Source: Candidatus Saccharibacteria bacterium CPR2 (GTDB taxonomy: Bacteria; Patescibacteriota; Saccharimonadia; Saccharimonadales; QWHN01). From it: a stretch of 38,798 bases of DNA. Under the pieces are notes generated by a model that was not told where the DNA came from, made no database searches, and was given only the letters and a program-made list of their open reading frames with translations. The stretch spans positions 143,582 through 182,379 of the forward strand of contig QWHN01000002.1 in assembly GCA_021404905.1 (NCBI GenBank), in the 5' to 3' direction. A program made the position numbers and the translations under genes. How positions within the stretch are numbered: position 1 is the first letter of the stretch; every line of letters begins with the position of its first letter. Below, piece by piece: positions 15,468 to 28,451 of this stretch.

Positions 15468-15794
15468 ATGAGTAGTGAAGAAGTGGCACAGTTAGACGAG
15501 TTTTCTGAAGATTGGCAAGCTCAAGCCGTATGTAAAGACGAGCATGAAGTTTTCAATGCAACGTTTGACATTTGCGATACAAAAAGAAGAGAGAAATCTA
15601 GAGAACAATATGTCATAGAAAGGCAGATAGAGAATGCAGCTAAAGCAATTTGCAGGCGCTGCGTAGTAAGAGTTGCTTGCCTTGACTATGCAATTGACAA
15701 TGAAGAAAAATTTGGCGTGTGGGGAGGTATGAATACAGAAGAAAGAACAGAATATGCAAAGCAGGCTCAATCCAAAAAAAGGAATTATATGTAA
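15468..15794 (+). CDS. WhiB-family Fe-S transcriptional regulator
   Basis: WQAQAVC ... AKAICRRCVVRVACLDYA ... GVWGG..TEER: four-Cys pattern plus GVWGG turn. Confidence 0.9.
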   Translation: MSSEEVAQLDEFSEDWQAQAVCKDEHEVFNATFDICDTKRREKSREQYVIERQIENAAKAICRRCVVRVACLDYAIDNEEKFGVWGGMNTEERTEYAKQAQSKKRNYM

Positions 15795-16075
15795 TGGCAA
15801 CAAACTCGCTTGATGACTTGCTAAAGAAAAAAGCAGACCAAATGGACTTTAGCGCTAAGAAGTCCGCTTTAGACATTGCTCAGAAAGAACTGGAAAGATT
15901 CGCGCCAGAGTTTGCTCGCGTAAGTAAGATTACTGATGAGGGAGCAGTATATGTAGTTACACCTCATGCCCCCATGGCCAGTAATTTACGCTTTCAACAG
16001 GTAGAGATTATTGAATCTATCAAGTCCGCACTTAATCAACCAATTGAAAAACTCGTCATCCAAATACGCTCTTGA
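15794..16075 (+). CDS. DciA/DUF721-like protein
   Basis: Start revised to ATG 15794 (TAATG overlap with whiB stop); pattern G.V.V......AS.L......II..I......I..L.I resembles DUF721. Confidence 0.55.
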   Translation: MATNSLDDLLKKKADQMDFSAKKSALDIAQKELERFAPEFARVSKITDEGAVYVVTPHAPMASNLRFQQVEIIESIKSALNQPIEKLVIQIRS

Positions 16076-16387: not shown

Positions 16388-16416
16388 TTGACACTTGCCA
16401 TATAGTCTGCCACAAT
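16388..16416 (+). promoter_or_regulatory. sigma70 promoter for the LexA-like gene
   Basis: TTGACA-N17-CACAAT. Confidence 0.6.
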
Positions 16417-16519
16417 GAACATGCGAGCTAATGCTATCCGCTAAATGCAAAATAAATGAAAACTGATTCGCTGTATAGCGAATGAAAACTGTAAATTAAT
16501 CAAGCAAAGCGAGATTTTT

Positions 16520-17155
16520 ATGCACACAATTCAAAAAAAGATTTACAAACTGGCTCAAAAGGAAGATATTGGCGCTTATGGCTACCGCAAAATTGGAGAA
16601 AAAATTAAAGTTGAGCATCCCCAGCAAGTTAAGCACCATGTTTTGAAACTTATTAATGATGGTTATCTGGTGAGAACACCTGGAGGGGGGCTCCGTGCCA
16701 GCAAGCCAAATATTGCTGGCGGCAAGATGTTACGCATTCCGATTTTAGGCCAAGCTAATTGCGGGGAAGCGTTATCCTACGCTGAAGATTATGCCCAAGA
16801 TTGGCTTTCGCTTTCTCCGAGTTTAGTGAAGTCAAAACACCCGAAAAAACTTTTTGCCGTAAAGGCCAGTGGAGATTCCATGAACAAAGCAGTGATTAAC
16901 GGAAAAACTATTGAGGACGGGGATTATGTAATAGTCGATGGCAGCACGCAAATTCCAGAAAACGGCGACTTTATTGTTTCATCAGTAGAAGGGCTGGCAA
17001 ATATAAAAAAATATATGCTAGACCAGCAATATGGCGTAATAGCATTGCTTAGCGAATCCACGCGTCAACGCCCACCAATATTTATTCACCCAAACGATGT
17101 TGAAAGCTACCACATTCACGGCAAAGTAGTGGAAGTTATTAAAAATCGTTTCTAA
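16520..17155 (+). CDS. LexA-like repressor with S24 peptidase domain
   Basis: N-terminal winged-HTH-like region, IPILGQANCG cleavage loop (C-G), GDSM catalytic Ser, IKK catalytic Lys, GKVV end. Confidence 0.85.
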   Translation: MHTIQKKIYKLAQKEDIGAYGYRKIGEKIKVEHPQQVKHHVLKLINDGYLVRTPGGGLRASKPNIAGGKMLRIPILGQANCGEALSYAEDYAQDWLSLSPSLVKSKHPKKLFAVKASGDSMNKAVINGKTIEDGDYVIVDGSTQIPENGDFIVSSVEGLANIKKYMLDQQYGVIALLSESTRQRPPIFIHPNDVESYHIHGKVVEVIKNRF

Positions 17156-17160
17156 ATTCG

Positions 17161-18567
17161 TTACTGGTTGTCTTTAAGTTTTGATTTTGTGCCGCCACTA
17201 AAAGCAAGAGGGTGTATGCGCCTGTCGTTTGATAAAACCCCCCAGTTATGAACCTCTTTGCCCTCGCCAGATCGAATTATGTCTGCTCTAAAACAGGCTC
17301 TGGTATTAGCGGGAGGGTTCTGAAGCGCATAATTAATTTCCCAGTCTTCATATTGAGAGTCGAATCCATGCCAACCCCAACCATTATTTCTGCGCCTTAT
17401 TGCGATTCCACGATTATCAAGAGAATCCCAGGTGTAATCTATATCGCGCATTTTTTCATTTATCGGTTGTGTTTCTGGATCACGCAAACTTAATTCTCTG
17501 ATGCAATCAAGGCGTGCTACCCATTCAACACGGTCAGTAGCCAGATCAGTTGATAATTCCAGATCATCTGTCACTTCTTTGATTTGCTCCAGCGCCCATA
17601 TTTCATCTTCACTCAATCCTTCCGGCTCAAAATACTCTATAAATTTCTCGGCAAATGCTGATTGCCATTCAGTCGCTCCAATACTTTTGCCGCTATCTAG
17701 TCTCAGTGTAGACCTAAGCGACAAATCACCGGCCACCAGACTTGCTGCCATCAGAGGATTTTCTAAAAATAAATCAGAGAAGTCCTTTCTCGACTCAATG
17801 GCCTTCATTAAAAGCGAGTTCGTTGCATGTTGCATTCTAATGGTCCACGGAGATAGAGAGGCATCACCGCATACTTGATGTACTCGATACATACCAAATT
17901 CACCATTACTATTATCATTACAGATAAGAGGCTTTTTCATACCTGTTCGAGAAGAACTCACGAGCTCTTTTGTAACAGATAATCTTGGAGATACAACATA
18001 CCCAAATTCACCATTTGCACTCATAATGCCGCCCGTTCCCGCGTAAACTGCCCTGGTAGCATTGAATGAACCCATAAGCGCGATCGTATTTTCATCAGAC
18101 TTATCTATCCGAGCGCGTGAGAATATATTTTCGTGATAACCCCAGGAATTTCCTAATTGATCAGTGGTTCGTTTATTCGCGTAGTATTTATCAATAACTC
18201 CTGCTTCTCTCAGCCTACGAAGCATCCCCATAATGAATTTCTCTGAAGACAATTCGTATTTTACTAGTTGCTCTGGACTAGCTGCTTCTGGAGTGCAATA
18301 TTCAGGTGTTCTATTTTGGTCAAAATAGAACCTTGCACCATTGCTCATGAACCCATAAGCATTTGAATCTGTTATTCCTTGATCGCTAAGCACATCATTT
18401 CGCCAATTTGACCACACGTTTACTATTTCAGCAGAAGCAGGTAAATTTGTATCATCATTTAAGGAAGTAGATGTAATTGAGTTGCCATTAAGCTCGGCAT
18501 GGATACTAAAACCAATCTCTGCCCCAAAAACTCTTTCAACCTGTCTAGAATCTCTCTCTGTTTCCAT
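17161..18567 (-). CDS. Pup-ligase/deamidase (PafA/Dop) family homolog, divergent
   Basis: RVFGAE, NGARFYFD...PEYCTPE, D..GNSWGYHEN, R.HQVCGDASLSPW, VEWVAR, D..W..L...G, PPANTRA.FR, late Trp. Start ATG 18567. Confidence 0.85.
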   Translation of the reverse strand: METERDSRQVERVFGAEIGFSIHAELNGNSITSTSLNDDTNLPASAEIVNVWSNWRNDVLSDQGITDSNAYGFMSNGARFYFDQNRTPEYCTPEAASPEQLVKYELSSEKFIMGMLRRLREAGVIDKYYANKRTTDQLGNSWGYHENIFSRARIDKSDENTIALMGSFNATRAVYAGTGGIMSANGEFGYVVSPRLSVTKELVSSSRTGMKKPLICNDNSNGEFGMYRVHQVCGDASLSPWTIRMQHATNSLLMKAIESRKDFSDLFLENPLMAASLVAGDLSLRSTLRLDSGKSIGATEWQSAFAEKFIEYFEPEGLSEDEIWALEQIKEVTDDLELSTDLATDRVEWVARLDCIRELSLRDPETQPINEKMRDIDYTWDSLDNRGIAIRRRNNGWGWHGFDSQYEDWEINYALQNPPANTRACFRADIIRSGEGKEVHNWGVLSNDRRIHPLAFSGGTKSKLKDNQ

Positions 18568-18678
18568 AAGTTGGCGATAATGAGTAATATACAACTTACA
18601 GAAAAATTAGACAATCATAAGCTTTATTGTATGAATTTGCTTACAAAAAGCCCTGAGTAGTGATACATTTTTAAAGTC

Positions 18679-19203
18679 ATGATTGGTTTTGGGCATACAA
18701 GTACAGGGGTGCTAATCGGCATCGGAGCAATACAATTTTTACCTGAAAAAATTTCCACTCCAACACAAATTTTTATCGTTTCTTTACTTGGAGTAATATC
18801 TCACTATATTACCGACTTTATACCACATGGCCACTATGCAATCGACCCGGAAAAATTAACTAAAAAAAGTTTGGCGCTTTTTACACTGGATACCCTCGGG
18901 GTGGCTATGTTTTTCCTCTTAATAGCTCTGTACAAATATGGTCTGACAAGTAGCTTTTGGTTGATTGCATTTGCCATAACAGGCGCTCAACTTCCAGATG
19001 TTTGGCAGGGAATAAATAAATTGACGCGCATTAAACAAAACACAATTACACGCTTTGAGTCGTATCTCCACAGTAAAATCGCGCACTGGCACAATCCGCC
19101 AAACACACCTATACCCGGAGGGGGCAGGCCTTGGAGCAAGGCAGATATTTGGCAAATATCTATTTTTATGTTTGCGCTTTGGTCTGTCTTATTTATAGGT
19201 TAA
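18679..19203 (+). CDS. membrane protein, possible metal-dependent hydrolase
   Basis: Several TM helices with H, SH...D.IPH, LPD and H...H motifs. Confidence 0.6.
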   Translation: MIGFGHTSTGVLIGIGAIQFLPEKISTPTQIFIVSLLGVISHYITDFIPHGHYAIDPEKLTKKSLALFTLDTLGVAMFFLLIALYKYGLTSSFWLIAFAITGAQLPDVWQGINKLTRIKQNTITRFESYLHSKIAHWHNPPNTPIPGGGRPWSKADIWQISIFMFALWSVLFIG

Positions 19204-20333
19204 GCGCCTGTGTGAGCAGACTTTACCTTGGCGCTTTCTTCATATAGCGCGTTAATCTCCGGCTCAATAATACCCTTAAAAATTTTTCTGTAACTATCCA
19301 GGCTTAAGTGTCTGCCGTCAATGATATGCACTTTTGAATTTGGAAAATCTTTTTCATTTAGGTGTTGTTTTAGTAAATAAGGAAGGGTAATGTAGTCTCC
19401 ATTAAAAGCGGCGGCTGTTACTCTATAATCTCGCGGCAATCTTTGAATTGTGTCTTCAAGGTCTCCGGAAAACAGGAAGTTAACGGCTAATTTTGCAGCT
19501 CCGGGAAGTGCTTCTTTATAAGGCACGGTTTTAACAAACGACCTTATATACTCATCGCGCTCGGGCTTGTTCATGTGAGAAGCTTTTTCAACAAAATGCG
19601 CTGGCTCTAAAACTAAGAATTGATATGCCGCCTTAATTCGCCGTTTATTACTTAAACTCCACCCAGCCGGCGCAACCGGCAAGCTTAGTTCGACAATGTG
19701 AGGTTGTTTTCCAGACTCCTCACGACGCCCGGCAATTGTTTGATCTGCGAAAACTAAGGATAAATAACCGCCAAGAGACGCGCCGGTATGTACCATTCGC
19801 GTTAGCTCTACTTGTTCTGTTTCGGCAATACCGTCTATAGCTTCATGGGTGTCACTAACTATTGAATGTAAGTCAAATCGCGCGAGCTGAAACGAATTCA
19901 TGCCGCGACCATGACTTGCGGGGGCACCAATCACCACTAGACCTCTGTCTTGTTCATGCGCAAGGCGATCAAGGTTTTTTATCATAGGAGCAACAAACCC
20001 TTGATCAGGCCGTACCATTAAAGACATATGCAAGTAGATGTCCGGGTTATCTGACCTGTCTCCCAAACAATCCCGGTTATAAATATGAACCGGATATTCT
20101 CCGGTATCAGTTTCTACCGTGTAGGAAATATCAGGGGTAACTTCGGCATATCTAACTGGATGATAGTTTTCCGGGGAAGTAGACAAACCTCTATGAATAA
20201 AAGGCAATACCGCAAGTCTTCCTACGCGCCACCCGATTGTTTCAAGTTTGTCTCTAAAATTTTCGGTTTCATGATTTTCGGCGCCCAAATATCCATCTGG
20301 ATTTTGATTGATAGTGGATACGTGCGCCTCCAT
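19200..20333 (-). CDS. alpha/beta hydrolase-like protein
   Basis: GASLGG nucleophile elbow, later D (NGDY) and H (GRH) candidates for the triad. Confidence 0.65.
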   Translation of the reverse strand: MEAHVSTINQNPDGYLGAENHETENFRDKLETIGWRVGRLAVLPFIHRGLSTSPENYHPVRYAEVTPDISYTVETDTGEYPVHIYNRDCLGDRSDNPDIYLHMSLMVRPDQGFVAPMIKNLDRLAHEQDRGLVVIGAPASHGRGMNSFQLARFDLHSIVSDTHEAIDGIAETEQVELTRMVHTGASLGGYLSLVFADQTIAGRREESGKQPHIVELSLPVAPAGWSLSNKRRIKAAYQFLVLEPAHFVEKASHMNKPERDEYIRSFVKTVPYKEALPGAAKLAVNFLFSGDLEDTIQRLPRDYRVTAAAFNGDYITLPYLLKQHLNEKDFPNSKVHIIDGRHLSLDSYRKIFKGIIEPEINALYEESAKVKSAHTGA

Positions 20334-27362: not shown

Positions 27363-28301
27363 TTAAGCAACTGTCGCCATTTCGGTTTTCTCAGAAACAA
27401 TATAAACAGGCAAGTCACCCTTAGTTAGAGTAGCTGCAGTTGACAGGGTATAAACAAGCATAGAAAGTAAAGCTTTTTGTTTTTCGACATCATTATCAAA
27501 CGCCTGATGTGAAATATCTTCAAGCCTCCACATATCTACTGCGAATACTTGAGCATTGTTGTTTGTTATTTCTCTTACCCAACCCTGATTTACTGTCTTT
27601 CCGCGCACTGTATTGATGATAATCGCGACCTCTTTATGGGAGCCTTCAAGTTCCTTGACAATCTTGCCCTTACTTACAATTTCGTTCTTTACATCTTTAC
27701 CGCTATAATTTTCATTATTAGCGCCTTGGCTATAATTTCTAAAAGACCCTAATACATTTTTTACAATATCGTTGTCAACATCATCACCAAGTAGGGCTCT
27801 AAGAGAACCCACAATATGATCATGATATTTTCCAACATTTCTTATGATATCAGGCGCCTTATCTATTGCGCCGCAACCACAATTTTCACCATGAGCATGA
27901 TCGTCTGTGTGAGCGCCAAAATCAATACCACGCTCCATCAATAAACCGATTGAAGACTTAAAAACTTCGTTTAGCGATTCATCTTTATCATTAACTCTTC
28001 CCATACCAATTAAAGCGGCTCCCATCATTATTGCGCTTCCGCCAAAAACTTTTGCCCTATTTAAAGATCTCTTAAATTCTCCAAATCTGTTGAATACTTT
28101 TTCGGCAAATCGCCCATCACCGCAACCATCGTCGCTAGCTTCTTCATCAATATCAACTAAAACGCTGTCTGGCCGGGTCTCAACGGCATCTTTAACTGCG
28201 TCTCTTGCCTCTACGCCAACTTTTTTCGCGGAAATATCTCCTTCGCCAAAACCCAGTCCGTTTGGCGCGATTAACCGAATTGAGTATTCTTTTTGTTCCA
28301 T
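27363..28301 (-). CDS. cadmium/zeta-type carbonic anhydrase-like protein
   Basis: CGDGR, KVFGG, GAHTD, CGCGA (Cys-His-Cys metal ligands with Asp-Arg dyad). Start chosen at ATG 28301 after GGAGG. Confidence 0.6.
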   Translation of the reverse strand: MEQKEYSIRLIAPNGLGFGEGDISAKKVGVEARDAVKDAVETRPDSVLVDIDEEASDDGCGDGRFAEKVFNRFGEFKRSLNRAKVFGGSAIMMGAALIGMGRVNDKDESLNEVFKSSIGLLMERGIDFGAHTDDHAHGENCGCGAIDKAPDIIRNVGKYHDHIVGSLRALLGDDVDNDIVKNVLGSFRNYSQGANNENYSGKDVKNEIVSKGKIVKELEGSHKEVAIIINTVRGKTVNQGWVREITNNNAQVFAVDMWRLEDISHQAFDNDVEKQKALLSMLVYTLSTAATLTKGDLPVYIVSEKTEMATVA

Positions 28302-28451
28302 TTCGAAACCTCCCATTAATAGATCTGCGTCGTTACCTTTTTCCATCTTTTTCCTTTTTAACATTTATTAAACAAAGCCCTATCATAAACATAAATATAA
28401 ATAAAAACAACCTCACATTTGTGGTATTATTTCATAGAGGAGACACTATAT

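Follow-up and report, generated by a model that had tools for sequence, protein, structure and literature searches.

A PafA/Dop-family gene with an altered nucleotide/metal motif in a Saccharibacteria genome without detectable Pup

A PafA/Dop-family gene on a Saccharibacteria contig

The stretch of DNA analysed here (the window) comprises 38,798 nucleotides of Candidatus Saccharibacteria bacterium CPR2 (assembly GCA_021404905.1, contig QWHN01000002.1, positions 143,582 to 182,379 of the forward strand). On its minus strand lies a gene of the family that includes PafA, which ligates Pup, and the depupylase Dop. The open reading frame (ORF) listing of the window gives this gene as an uninterrupted frame at 17161-18594 (minus strand, 477 residues). 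Translation most likely begins at the ATG at 18567, which would yield a protein of 468 residues. This start is preferred because the cluster members P0001, P0012 and P0013 are also 468 residues long (database members are identical and 96% identical to the window protein) and because a close strain, seen in a contig from an RNA library, has a stop at codon 8 of the longer, 477-codon frame. The gene and the motifs discussed below are located as follows.

17161..18567, minus strand: PafA/Dop-family (Pup_ligase) gene, 468 residues; stop 17161-17163, start ATG 18565-18567
18511..18525, minus strand: GAEIG, degenerate form of the GhExE nucleotide/metal motif; Glu17 (Dop Glu8) kept, Gly19 at the position of Glu10
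18319-18342, minus strand: NGARFYFD; Tyr81 (Dop Tyr92) and Asp83 (catalytic Asp94) kept
18286-18312, minus strand: RTPEYCTPE; Glu89 (Dop Glu99) kept, Thr87 in place of the PafA/Dop His before PEY
18127..18135, minus strand: HEN motif; His145 (Dop His155, an Mg ligand) kept
17902..17934, minus strand: KPLICNDNSNG, a remodelled loop that replaces (K/R)RPI(I/V)NTRDEPH; Asn217 at the position of Dop Arg227
17863..17886, minus strand: RVHQVCGD; Arg228, His230 (Dop His241, an Mg ligand and phosphate contact) and GD kept
17371..17382, minus strand: GWGW motif in the C-terminal part; invariant in the six-member subclade of the window protein, absent from the two actinobacterial Dop rows aligned

The protein matches the Pfam family PF03136 (Pup_ligase) with 195 bits (cut-off 25; E 2.9e-57) over profile positions 69-431 of 441, and a profile search of the whole of its own genome (G000) returned it, at 194.9 bits, as the single family gene. 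Its scores fall below the cut-offs of both equivalog models, with 147.3 bits for PafA (TIGR03686, cut-off 551.3) and 143.1 bits for Dop (TIGR03688, cut-off 492.3). Sequence comparison with solved structures gave Dop chains as the best matches (99.9 and 96.6 bits) and PafA at 63.8 bits.

An AlphaFold2 model of the window protein, built on a 77-row alignment, reached a predicted local distance difference test score (pLDDT) of 93.3 and a predicted template modelling score (pTM) of 0.93. Foldseek comparison of this model gave a template modelling (TM) score of 0.79 for Dop (5lrt) and 0.73 for PafA (4bjr); YbdK, glutamate-cysteine ligases and glutamine synthetases reached only 0.31-0.45. The model thus predicts a two-domain PafA/Dop fold with the substrate cradle kept. 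A prior reading of the DNA letters (the sequence-only reading) had called the gene a Pup-ligase/depupylase homolog and had named a generic glutamate-cysteine ligase fold as the finding that would speak against this. The family profile and the fold match bear out the homology, and the generic fold is ruled out because similarity to Dop and PafA is far above that to YbdK, glutamate-cysteine ligase and glutamine synthetase (TM at most 0.45). These other members of the carboxylate-amine ligase superfamily (YbdK/GCS2 among them) share the beta-sheet cradle with the window protein but are without the PafA/Dop C-terminal domain and the family motifs.

Changes in the active site

Parts of PMC8599861 that describe the Dop of Acidothermus (AcelDop) give Glu8, Glu10, Tyr92, Glu99, His155 and His241 as Mg ligands, assign catalysis to Asp94 and state that the catalytic phosphate is held by Arg227, a highly conserved residue; further residue roles in PafA and Dop were taken from portions of PMC7947786. 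Motifs in the window protein were checked by translation, by a HMMER alignment to Dop 4B0R/5LRT and by MAFFT alignments that included 17 relatives. The equivalents of Glu8, Tyr92, Glu99, His155 and His241 are all kept, and Glu10 is the only metal ligand lost. In the 77-row family alignment, the Glu10 column is also the sole column of at least 90% conservation at which the window protein departs from the family. Gly occupies this position in 3 of 88 aligned rows, namely the window protein, P0002 (62% identical to it) and L067/P0003 of genome G041 (51% identical), and in the same 88-row alignment P0022 is missing both Glu residues of GhExE. No basic residue (Arg or Lys) is present between Pro213 and Arg228. 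Asp83, Glu89, the HEN motif and RxH (Arg228) are invariant across the six-member subclade. The motif list of the sequence-only reading, changed and retained motifs alike, proved correct at every point by translation and alignment. A literature search on a Dop E10A mutant and Pup found nothing.

Dop (TIGR03688; PDB 4B0R, 5LRT, 7OXY) is the closest known system by solved-structure match and by fold, and shares the two-domain architecture. The Tyr-x-Asp catalytic loop and the equivalents of Glu99, His155 and His241 are common to both, as is the "xTP" that follows PEY. The window protein differs from Dop in that it lacks the long Dop-loop insertion, which is present in P0009 and P0011, has Gly for Glu10 and Asn for Arg227, and, like PafA, carries an additional residue behind the catalytic Asp; moreover, its genome lacks Pup. 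With PafA (TIGR03686; PDB 4B0T, 4BJR) it shares the family, the fold and a similar length without the Dop-loop, but the second Glu of GhExE is absent from the protein, and Pup, Mpa and the proteasome are absent from the genome.

Search for Pup partners in the same genome

The assembly that holds the window (G000) has 829,375 bases in 9 contigs, is 98.9% complete and has a guanine-plus-cytosine (GC) content of ~0.40. The Pfam Pup model (PF05639) gave no match in it at E values up to 10, and neither did a broadened Pup profile (A5). Custom Saccharimonadales Pup profiles that included divergent forms, run unfiltered (--max) on the 23279 translated frames described next, returned at best a coiled-coil protein (E 0.31 and 0.094). 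In an exhaustive six-frame search, all 23279 stop-to-stop frames of at least 20 residues in the genome were translated; three of them end in GG[QE], all on other contigs and none Pup-like, and the window's own contig has no such frame at all. Proteasome subunits (PF00227) were not found. The best match to the Mpa/ARC ATPase model (TIGR03689) was a 626-residue generic AAA protein, with 146.8 bits against a cut-off of 504.75.

UBact-associated ligases are further PafA/Dop homologs outside Actinobacteria and Nitrospirae. The UBact model (NF033388) reached at best 9.2 bits in G000 (E 1.66, cut-off 35), a level that control genomes reach too, and nothing rose above noise in 11 related genomes. The gene had been described beforehand as an orphan, with no small GG[EQ]-ended ORF in the window and with a complete Pup/UBact-proteasome set elsewhere in the genome as the finding that would overturn this. 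The description holds for the 98.9%-complete genome, in which no Pup, UBact, proteasome or above-cut-off Mpa/ARC was found and no complete set turned up, and the lack of a GG[EQ]-ended frame of at least 20 residues extends to the whole contig.

Phylogenetic placement

A quick IQ-TREE tree (LG+G4; 82 rows, 488 columns) was computed with Shimodaira-Hasegawa-like approximate likelihood ratio test (SH-aLRT) support only. Fragmentary L025, L069 and L082 were left out, and L028, L041 and L096 were never included. Seven rows served as references: Nitrospirae Dop and PafA from dop-pup-pafA loci, one Luteococcus PafA and two actinobacterial Dop. These seven form one clade (support 98), and the clade of the window lies outside it. 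The window protein groups with P0002 and the second copy of G041 (support 100), then with P0019-P0021 (support 97), all within a 22-row clade (SH-aLRT 98) that splits into two halves, the window-type one with 9 rows and the other with 13. The 22 rows come from 14 sampled genomes, and Pup was found in 0 of these 14 by the Pfam model or by the broadened profile, whose two positive controls are rows of that profile and so match by construction. In approximately unbiased (AU) tests, trees that unite the Dop references (p 0.015) or the PafA references (p 0.033) with the window-type half are rejected; these groups were named after the tree had been seen, and the tree has long branches elsewhere. The window protein is outside both the PafA and the Dop orthogroups.

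Ligase homologs and Pup across Saccharimonadales

A Pup_ligase match was found in 67 of 401 sampled Saccharimonadales genomes and a Pup match above the Pfam cut-off in 19 of the 401; unpublished genomes are included in both tallies (G307 and G340 for the ligase, G342 and G352 for Pup). Both genes occur together in 11 genomes. Eight carry Pup without any Pup_ligase match, among them the single-contig, 98%-complete G077, and 56 of the 67 ligase-bearing genomes have no Pfam-detectable Pup. The genuine Pup genes (L014, L015, L043-L058) encode 66-90 residues and end in GGQ or GGE. Pup directly adjoins the ligase in G220, G133, G124, G271 and G007. The G007 case is an acidic, EGGQ-ended protein of 83 residues (L007:1136-1387, plus strand) that lies 8 bases upstream of the ligase homolog and looks, by its sequence features, like a divergent Pup. 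Because the Pfam model missed it, the Pup counts in Saccharimonadales are lower bounds (at least 20 genomes with G007 included). A Pup-like protein of 90 residues lies beside the ligase of G124 (L099:3331-3603, minus strand); its helix-forming segment is apparently duplicated, and its C-terminus reads NGQ rather than GGQ.

Small ORFs ending in E or Q were sought within 400 bases of 62 ligase genes, and Pup or Pup-like products were found only beside L007, L033, L097, L098 and L099, none of which is a member of the window's clade. Proteasome subunits were found in none of 11 ligase-bearing Saccharimonadales genomes tested. The sequence-only reading had assumed that pupylation genes normally cluster; this fails in Saccharimonadales, where Pup and single ligase homologs are often unlinked and no proteasome accompanies them in the 11 genomes tested.

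The highest equivalog score among 65 Saccharimonadales homologs is ~270 bits, and all of them stay under the PafA and Dop cut-offs. In a sample of the phylum Patescibacteria, the family occurs in 8 of 401 genomes; by a count of the listed rows, the same order contributes 6 of 23 and other classes 2 of ~376, whereas the remaining orders of the class contribute 0 of 2. Genome G041 has two family members and no detectable Pup. One of these (L002, on contig C1) has every canonical active-site residue, with an intact GhExE, RDEPH loop and His241, and the other (L067, on C4) has the window-type GAEIG.

Maintenance of the gene

Relatives at 96%, 62% and 51% identity have the same altered motifs. Between the window gene and that of G041, the proportion of synonymous differences (pS) is 0.80, which is saturated, and the proportion of nonsynonymous differences (pN) is 0.34. 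An unbroken frame, a Glu-to-Gly change common to relatives at 62% and 51% identity, a saturated pS against a pN of 0.34 and catalytic residues that are invariant in the six-member subclade argue that the gene is maintained rather than decaying. Strain variants that contigs of RNA-labelled libraries show inside the 468-residue gene change the amino acid in 6 codons and leave it unchanged in 6, at low depth and in numbers too few for a ratio of nonsynonymous to synonymous rates (dN/dS). Contigs from the RNA-labelled libraries X17 and X18 cover 256, 269 and 204 bases of the gene with 95-99% likeness and at low depth; since carry-over of DNA into these libraries is possible, they are no evidence of transcription, and uncovered parts of the gene carry no information either.

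Genomic neighbourhood

The window is ordinary chromosome, with an ATP synthase operon, the RNase P protein, a sortase, a glycosyltransferase, Fur and a histidine kinase. Neighbours of the ligase homolog are a WhiB-like protein, DciA, an S24/LexA-like repressor, a membrane protein, an unassigned 377-residue protein and a PGA_cap protein. The repressor gene is convergent and lies 5 bases from the ligase homolog, and the gene for the membrane protein is divergent, 84 bases away. An all-versus-all BLASTP comparison of ORFs of at least 35 residues in 14 loci of the clade found nothing conserved apart from the ligase and frames antisense to it inside its gene. A PHROGs search gave generic matches for the S24 repressor-like and WhiB neighbours only, and none for the ligase homolog.

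Among 50,697 phage records, a tblastn search produced one match, an unverified scaffold of 74% GC (measured on the fetched stretch) with a canonical dop-pup-pafA set. This "Bacteriophage sp." record from human faeces (L128, MT835496.1:36231-49337) carries in a row a 1021-residue Dop-containing ORF, a 63-residue GGQ Pup and a 467-residue PafA-like gene. It is probably actinobacterial chromosome rather than phage.

Several further observations concern the surroundings. WhiB-like transcription factors are usually regarded as a hallmark of actinobacteria and actinophages. G000 has three WhiB-like genes (window 15468-15794, plus strand; C8:59658-59852; C1:81481-81729), and of 61 Saccharimonadales genomes sampled for WhiB, 39 have a match. 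The longest DciA-like frame (15719-16075, plus strand) overlaps the WhiB-like gene at 15468-15794 (plus strand) by 76 bases; a later ATG, which gives the 93-residue form of L001, is probably the true start of DciA. At 27363-28364 (minus strand), a 333-residue protein scores 34.5 bits (cut-off 29.2) with PF18484, the model of the cadmium carbonic anhydrase repeat, a weak match that is unexpected in a genome of Saccharimonadales. DNA near-identical to window positions 16400-19300 is present in 15 public runs (at least half of the sampled words) from ~11 studies, one of which runs may be the source sample; they are labelled as bioreactor, sludge, wastewater, biofilm or soil metagenomes.

Relation to known systems

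The relevant parts of PMC7947786 and PMC3511204 treat pupylation as a system of Actinobacteria and Nitrospirae with one tag and two enzymes. Single-copy or sporadic PafA/Dop homologs of Planctomycetes and others, as presented in part of the work by Hecht et al. (2020, PMC7947786), resemble the present case in that they stand outside both orthogroups, at ~29-31% identity to both, and in phyla without the classical locus. The window's genome differs from these in having no detectable tag gene and a broken ATP motif. Section 5 of PMC7947786 names NC10, Armatimonadetes, Verrucomicrobia, Nitrospinae, Firmicutes, Proteobacteria and Planctomycetes as phyla with sporadic homologs; Saccharibacteria and Patescibacteria are not named in that section. 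Full-text literature searches, whose coverage excluded subscription journals, returned no paper linking pupylation or PafA with Saccharibacteria or Patescibacteria. Also close are the modules of Pup and a single ligase in Saccharimonadales, which belong to the same order and family of proteins and in which no proteasome was found (11 such genomes, G000). They differ in that a genuine GGQ or GGE Pup is encoded, adjoining the ligase in five genomes and never in the window's clade.

Interpretation

As the likeliest reading, held tentatively, we propose that this PafA/Dop-family member is maintained, works independently of Pup and was repurposed within a Saccharimonadales clade whose genomes lack Pup. 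Since the genome has no tag gene, the enzyme probably does another job. Loss of the second GhExE Glu and of the phosphate-clamping Arg would disable or much alter the canonical, ATP-driven formation of the Pup-gamma-glutamyl phosphate by which PafA works, and chemistry of the Dop type, dependent on ADP and inorganic phosphate, would be affected likewise. The cradle may still bind a carboxylate- or amide-ended peptide or a gamma-glutamyl-linked substrate, so that the protein could act as a hydrolase or amidase-type enzyme, independent of nucleotide or weakly dependent on it, or as a binding protein, with something other than a Pup from its own genome as the putative target. Both substrate and chemistry are inferred. 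The interpretation offered in the sequence-only reading is supported in part: the orphan status and the PafA/Dop fold stand, its phrase "repurposed enzyme or pseudo-enzyme" fits a clade present in 14 genomes with Pup in none and a Glu-to-Gly change shared by relatives, and its picture of clustering does not carry over.

Several observations weigh against this proposal. No conserved neighbour points to a substrate. The Pfam Pup model missed the divergent Pup of G007, and a still more divergent tag could for that reason escape our searches. The loop alignment around the Arg227 position is uncertain, and in the same alignment L097, L098 and L099, each of which adjoins a genuine pup, read Glu at His241; L098 and L099 have no Arg at the Arg227 position, and L097 has one a column away. 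Because these three adjoin pup, changes at Arg227 and His241 alone do not exclude Pup chemistry, and by these alignments the Glu-to-Gly change alone sets the window's branch apart. That the protein would be a hydrolase rather than a ligase is something we infer from the loss of residues, and the AlphaFold2 model informs on the fold only. Complex prediction for the window protein and the last 40 residues of a Saccharimonadales Pup scored 0.00 in both runs, with controls absent, and weighs neither way.

The protein might instead be a pseudoenzyme, with no catalysis, that uses the old substrate groove for binding, scaffolding or regulation. Two residues central to the handling of nucleotide, metal or phosphate are indeed lost, and G041 pairs a window-type copy with the intact L002, as would be expected if a degenerate paralogue modulated an active one. 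As the sole family member in G000, however, the window protein has no active partner to regulate, and a structural role would not obviously need the catalytic Asp, Glu89, HEN and RxH that stay invariant in the six-member subclade; we consider a pseudoenzyme unlikely. Somewhat lower still we place continued activity as a ligase or deamidase, directed at an unrecognised modifier whose gene would lie elsewhere in the genome and whose small product would resemble neither Pup nor UBact. Divergent tags do exist in the order, as the 83-residue EGGQ protein of G007 missed by Pfam attests, and the 56 of 67 ligase-bearing genomes without a Pfam-detectable Pup leave room for one. The custom profiles, divergent forms included, nevertheless reached only E 0.31 and 0.094 in the window's own genome, with a coiled-coil protein, and none of the 3 frames in 23279 that end in GG[QE] is plausible. 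The intergenic space flanking the gene is just 5 and 84 bases, and the second Glu of GhExE is lost. The sequence-only reading had also raised a ligase of this kind, an idea that no conserved small ORF beside the 14 clade loci backs.

Action across organisms would have the protein bind, remove, deamidate or sequester Pup or pupylated proteins of an actinobacterial host, as an effector, decoy or scavenging enzyme; the sequence-only reading had raised an effector or decoy aimed at the host Pup-proteasome system. Cultivated Saccharibacteria live as epibionts on Actinobacteria, according to parts of PMC10633639, the family is concentrated in Saccharimonadales within Patescibacteria (6 of 23 genomes against 2 of ~376 from other classes), and the bacterium's own genome has no Pup. 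This is improbable all the same, as the N-terminus shows no signal peptide or recognisable secretion signal when read by eye and the gene context is that of neither a secretion system nor a mobile element. The fuller version, in which Saccharibacteria took up and diversified the PafA/Dop family and the window's ATP-site-remodelled clade targets host Pup or pupylated proteins, which it would bind, trim or sequester, is a shade more doubtful again. A remnant of an earlier Pup system that is decaying towards a pseudogene would account for the lost Pup, the eroded motifs and the patchy distribution in the order. Against it stand the intact frame of 468 codons, the same altered motifs at 96%, 62% and 51% identity, a pN of 0.34 against a saturated pS of 0.80, the retention of all other residues conserved across the family and the confident model (pLDDT 93.3), and this explanation, already disfavoured, is very improbable.

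Significance

The Saccharimonadales data depart from the established picture of pupylation in several respects. The enzyme family has radiated widely in an ultra-small, epibiotic order (67 of 401 genomes), a genuine Pup is present in a minority of ligase-bearing genomes, and the 11 of them that were tested yielded no proteasome. A well-supported clade never occurs with Pup, and its innermost branch gave up a catalytic Glu found superfamily-wide, yet is under selection. Together these genomes amount to a natural experiment in the reuse of a protein-tag ligase/hydrolase scaffold. Because cultivated Saccharibacteria parasitise Actinobacteria that use Pup, the question arises whether any of this machinery faces the host; if the host-Pup reading were true, it would be the first case of a bacterium manipulating the ubiquitin-like tagging system of another bacterium.

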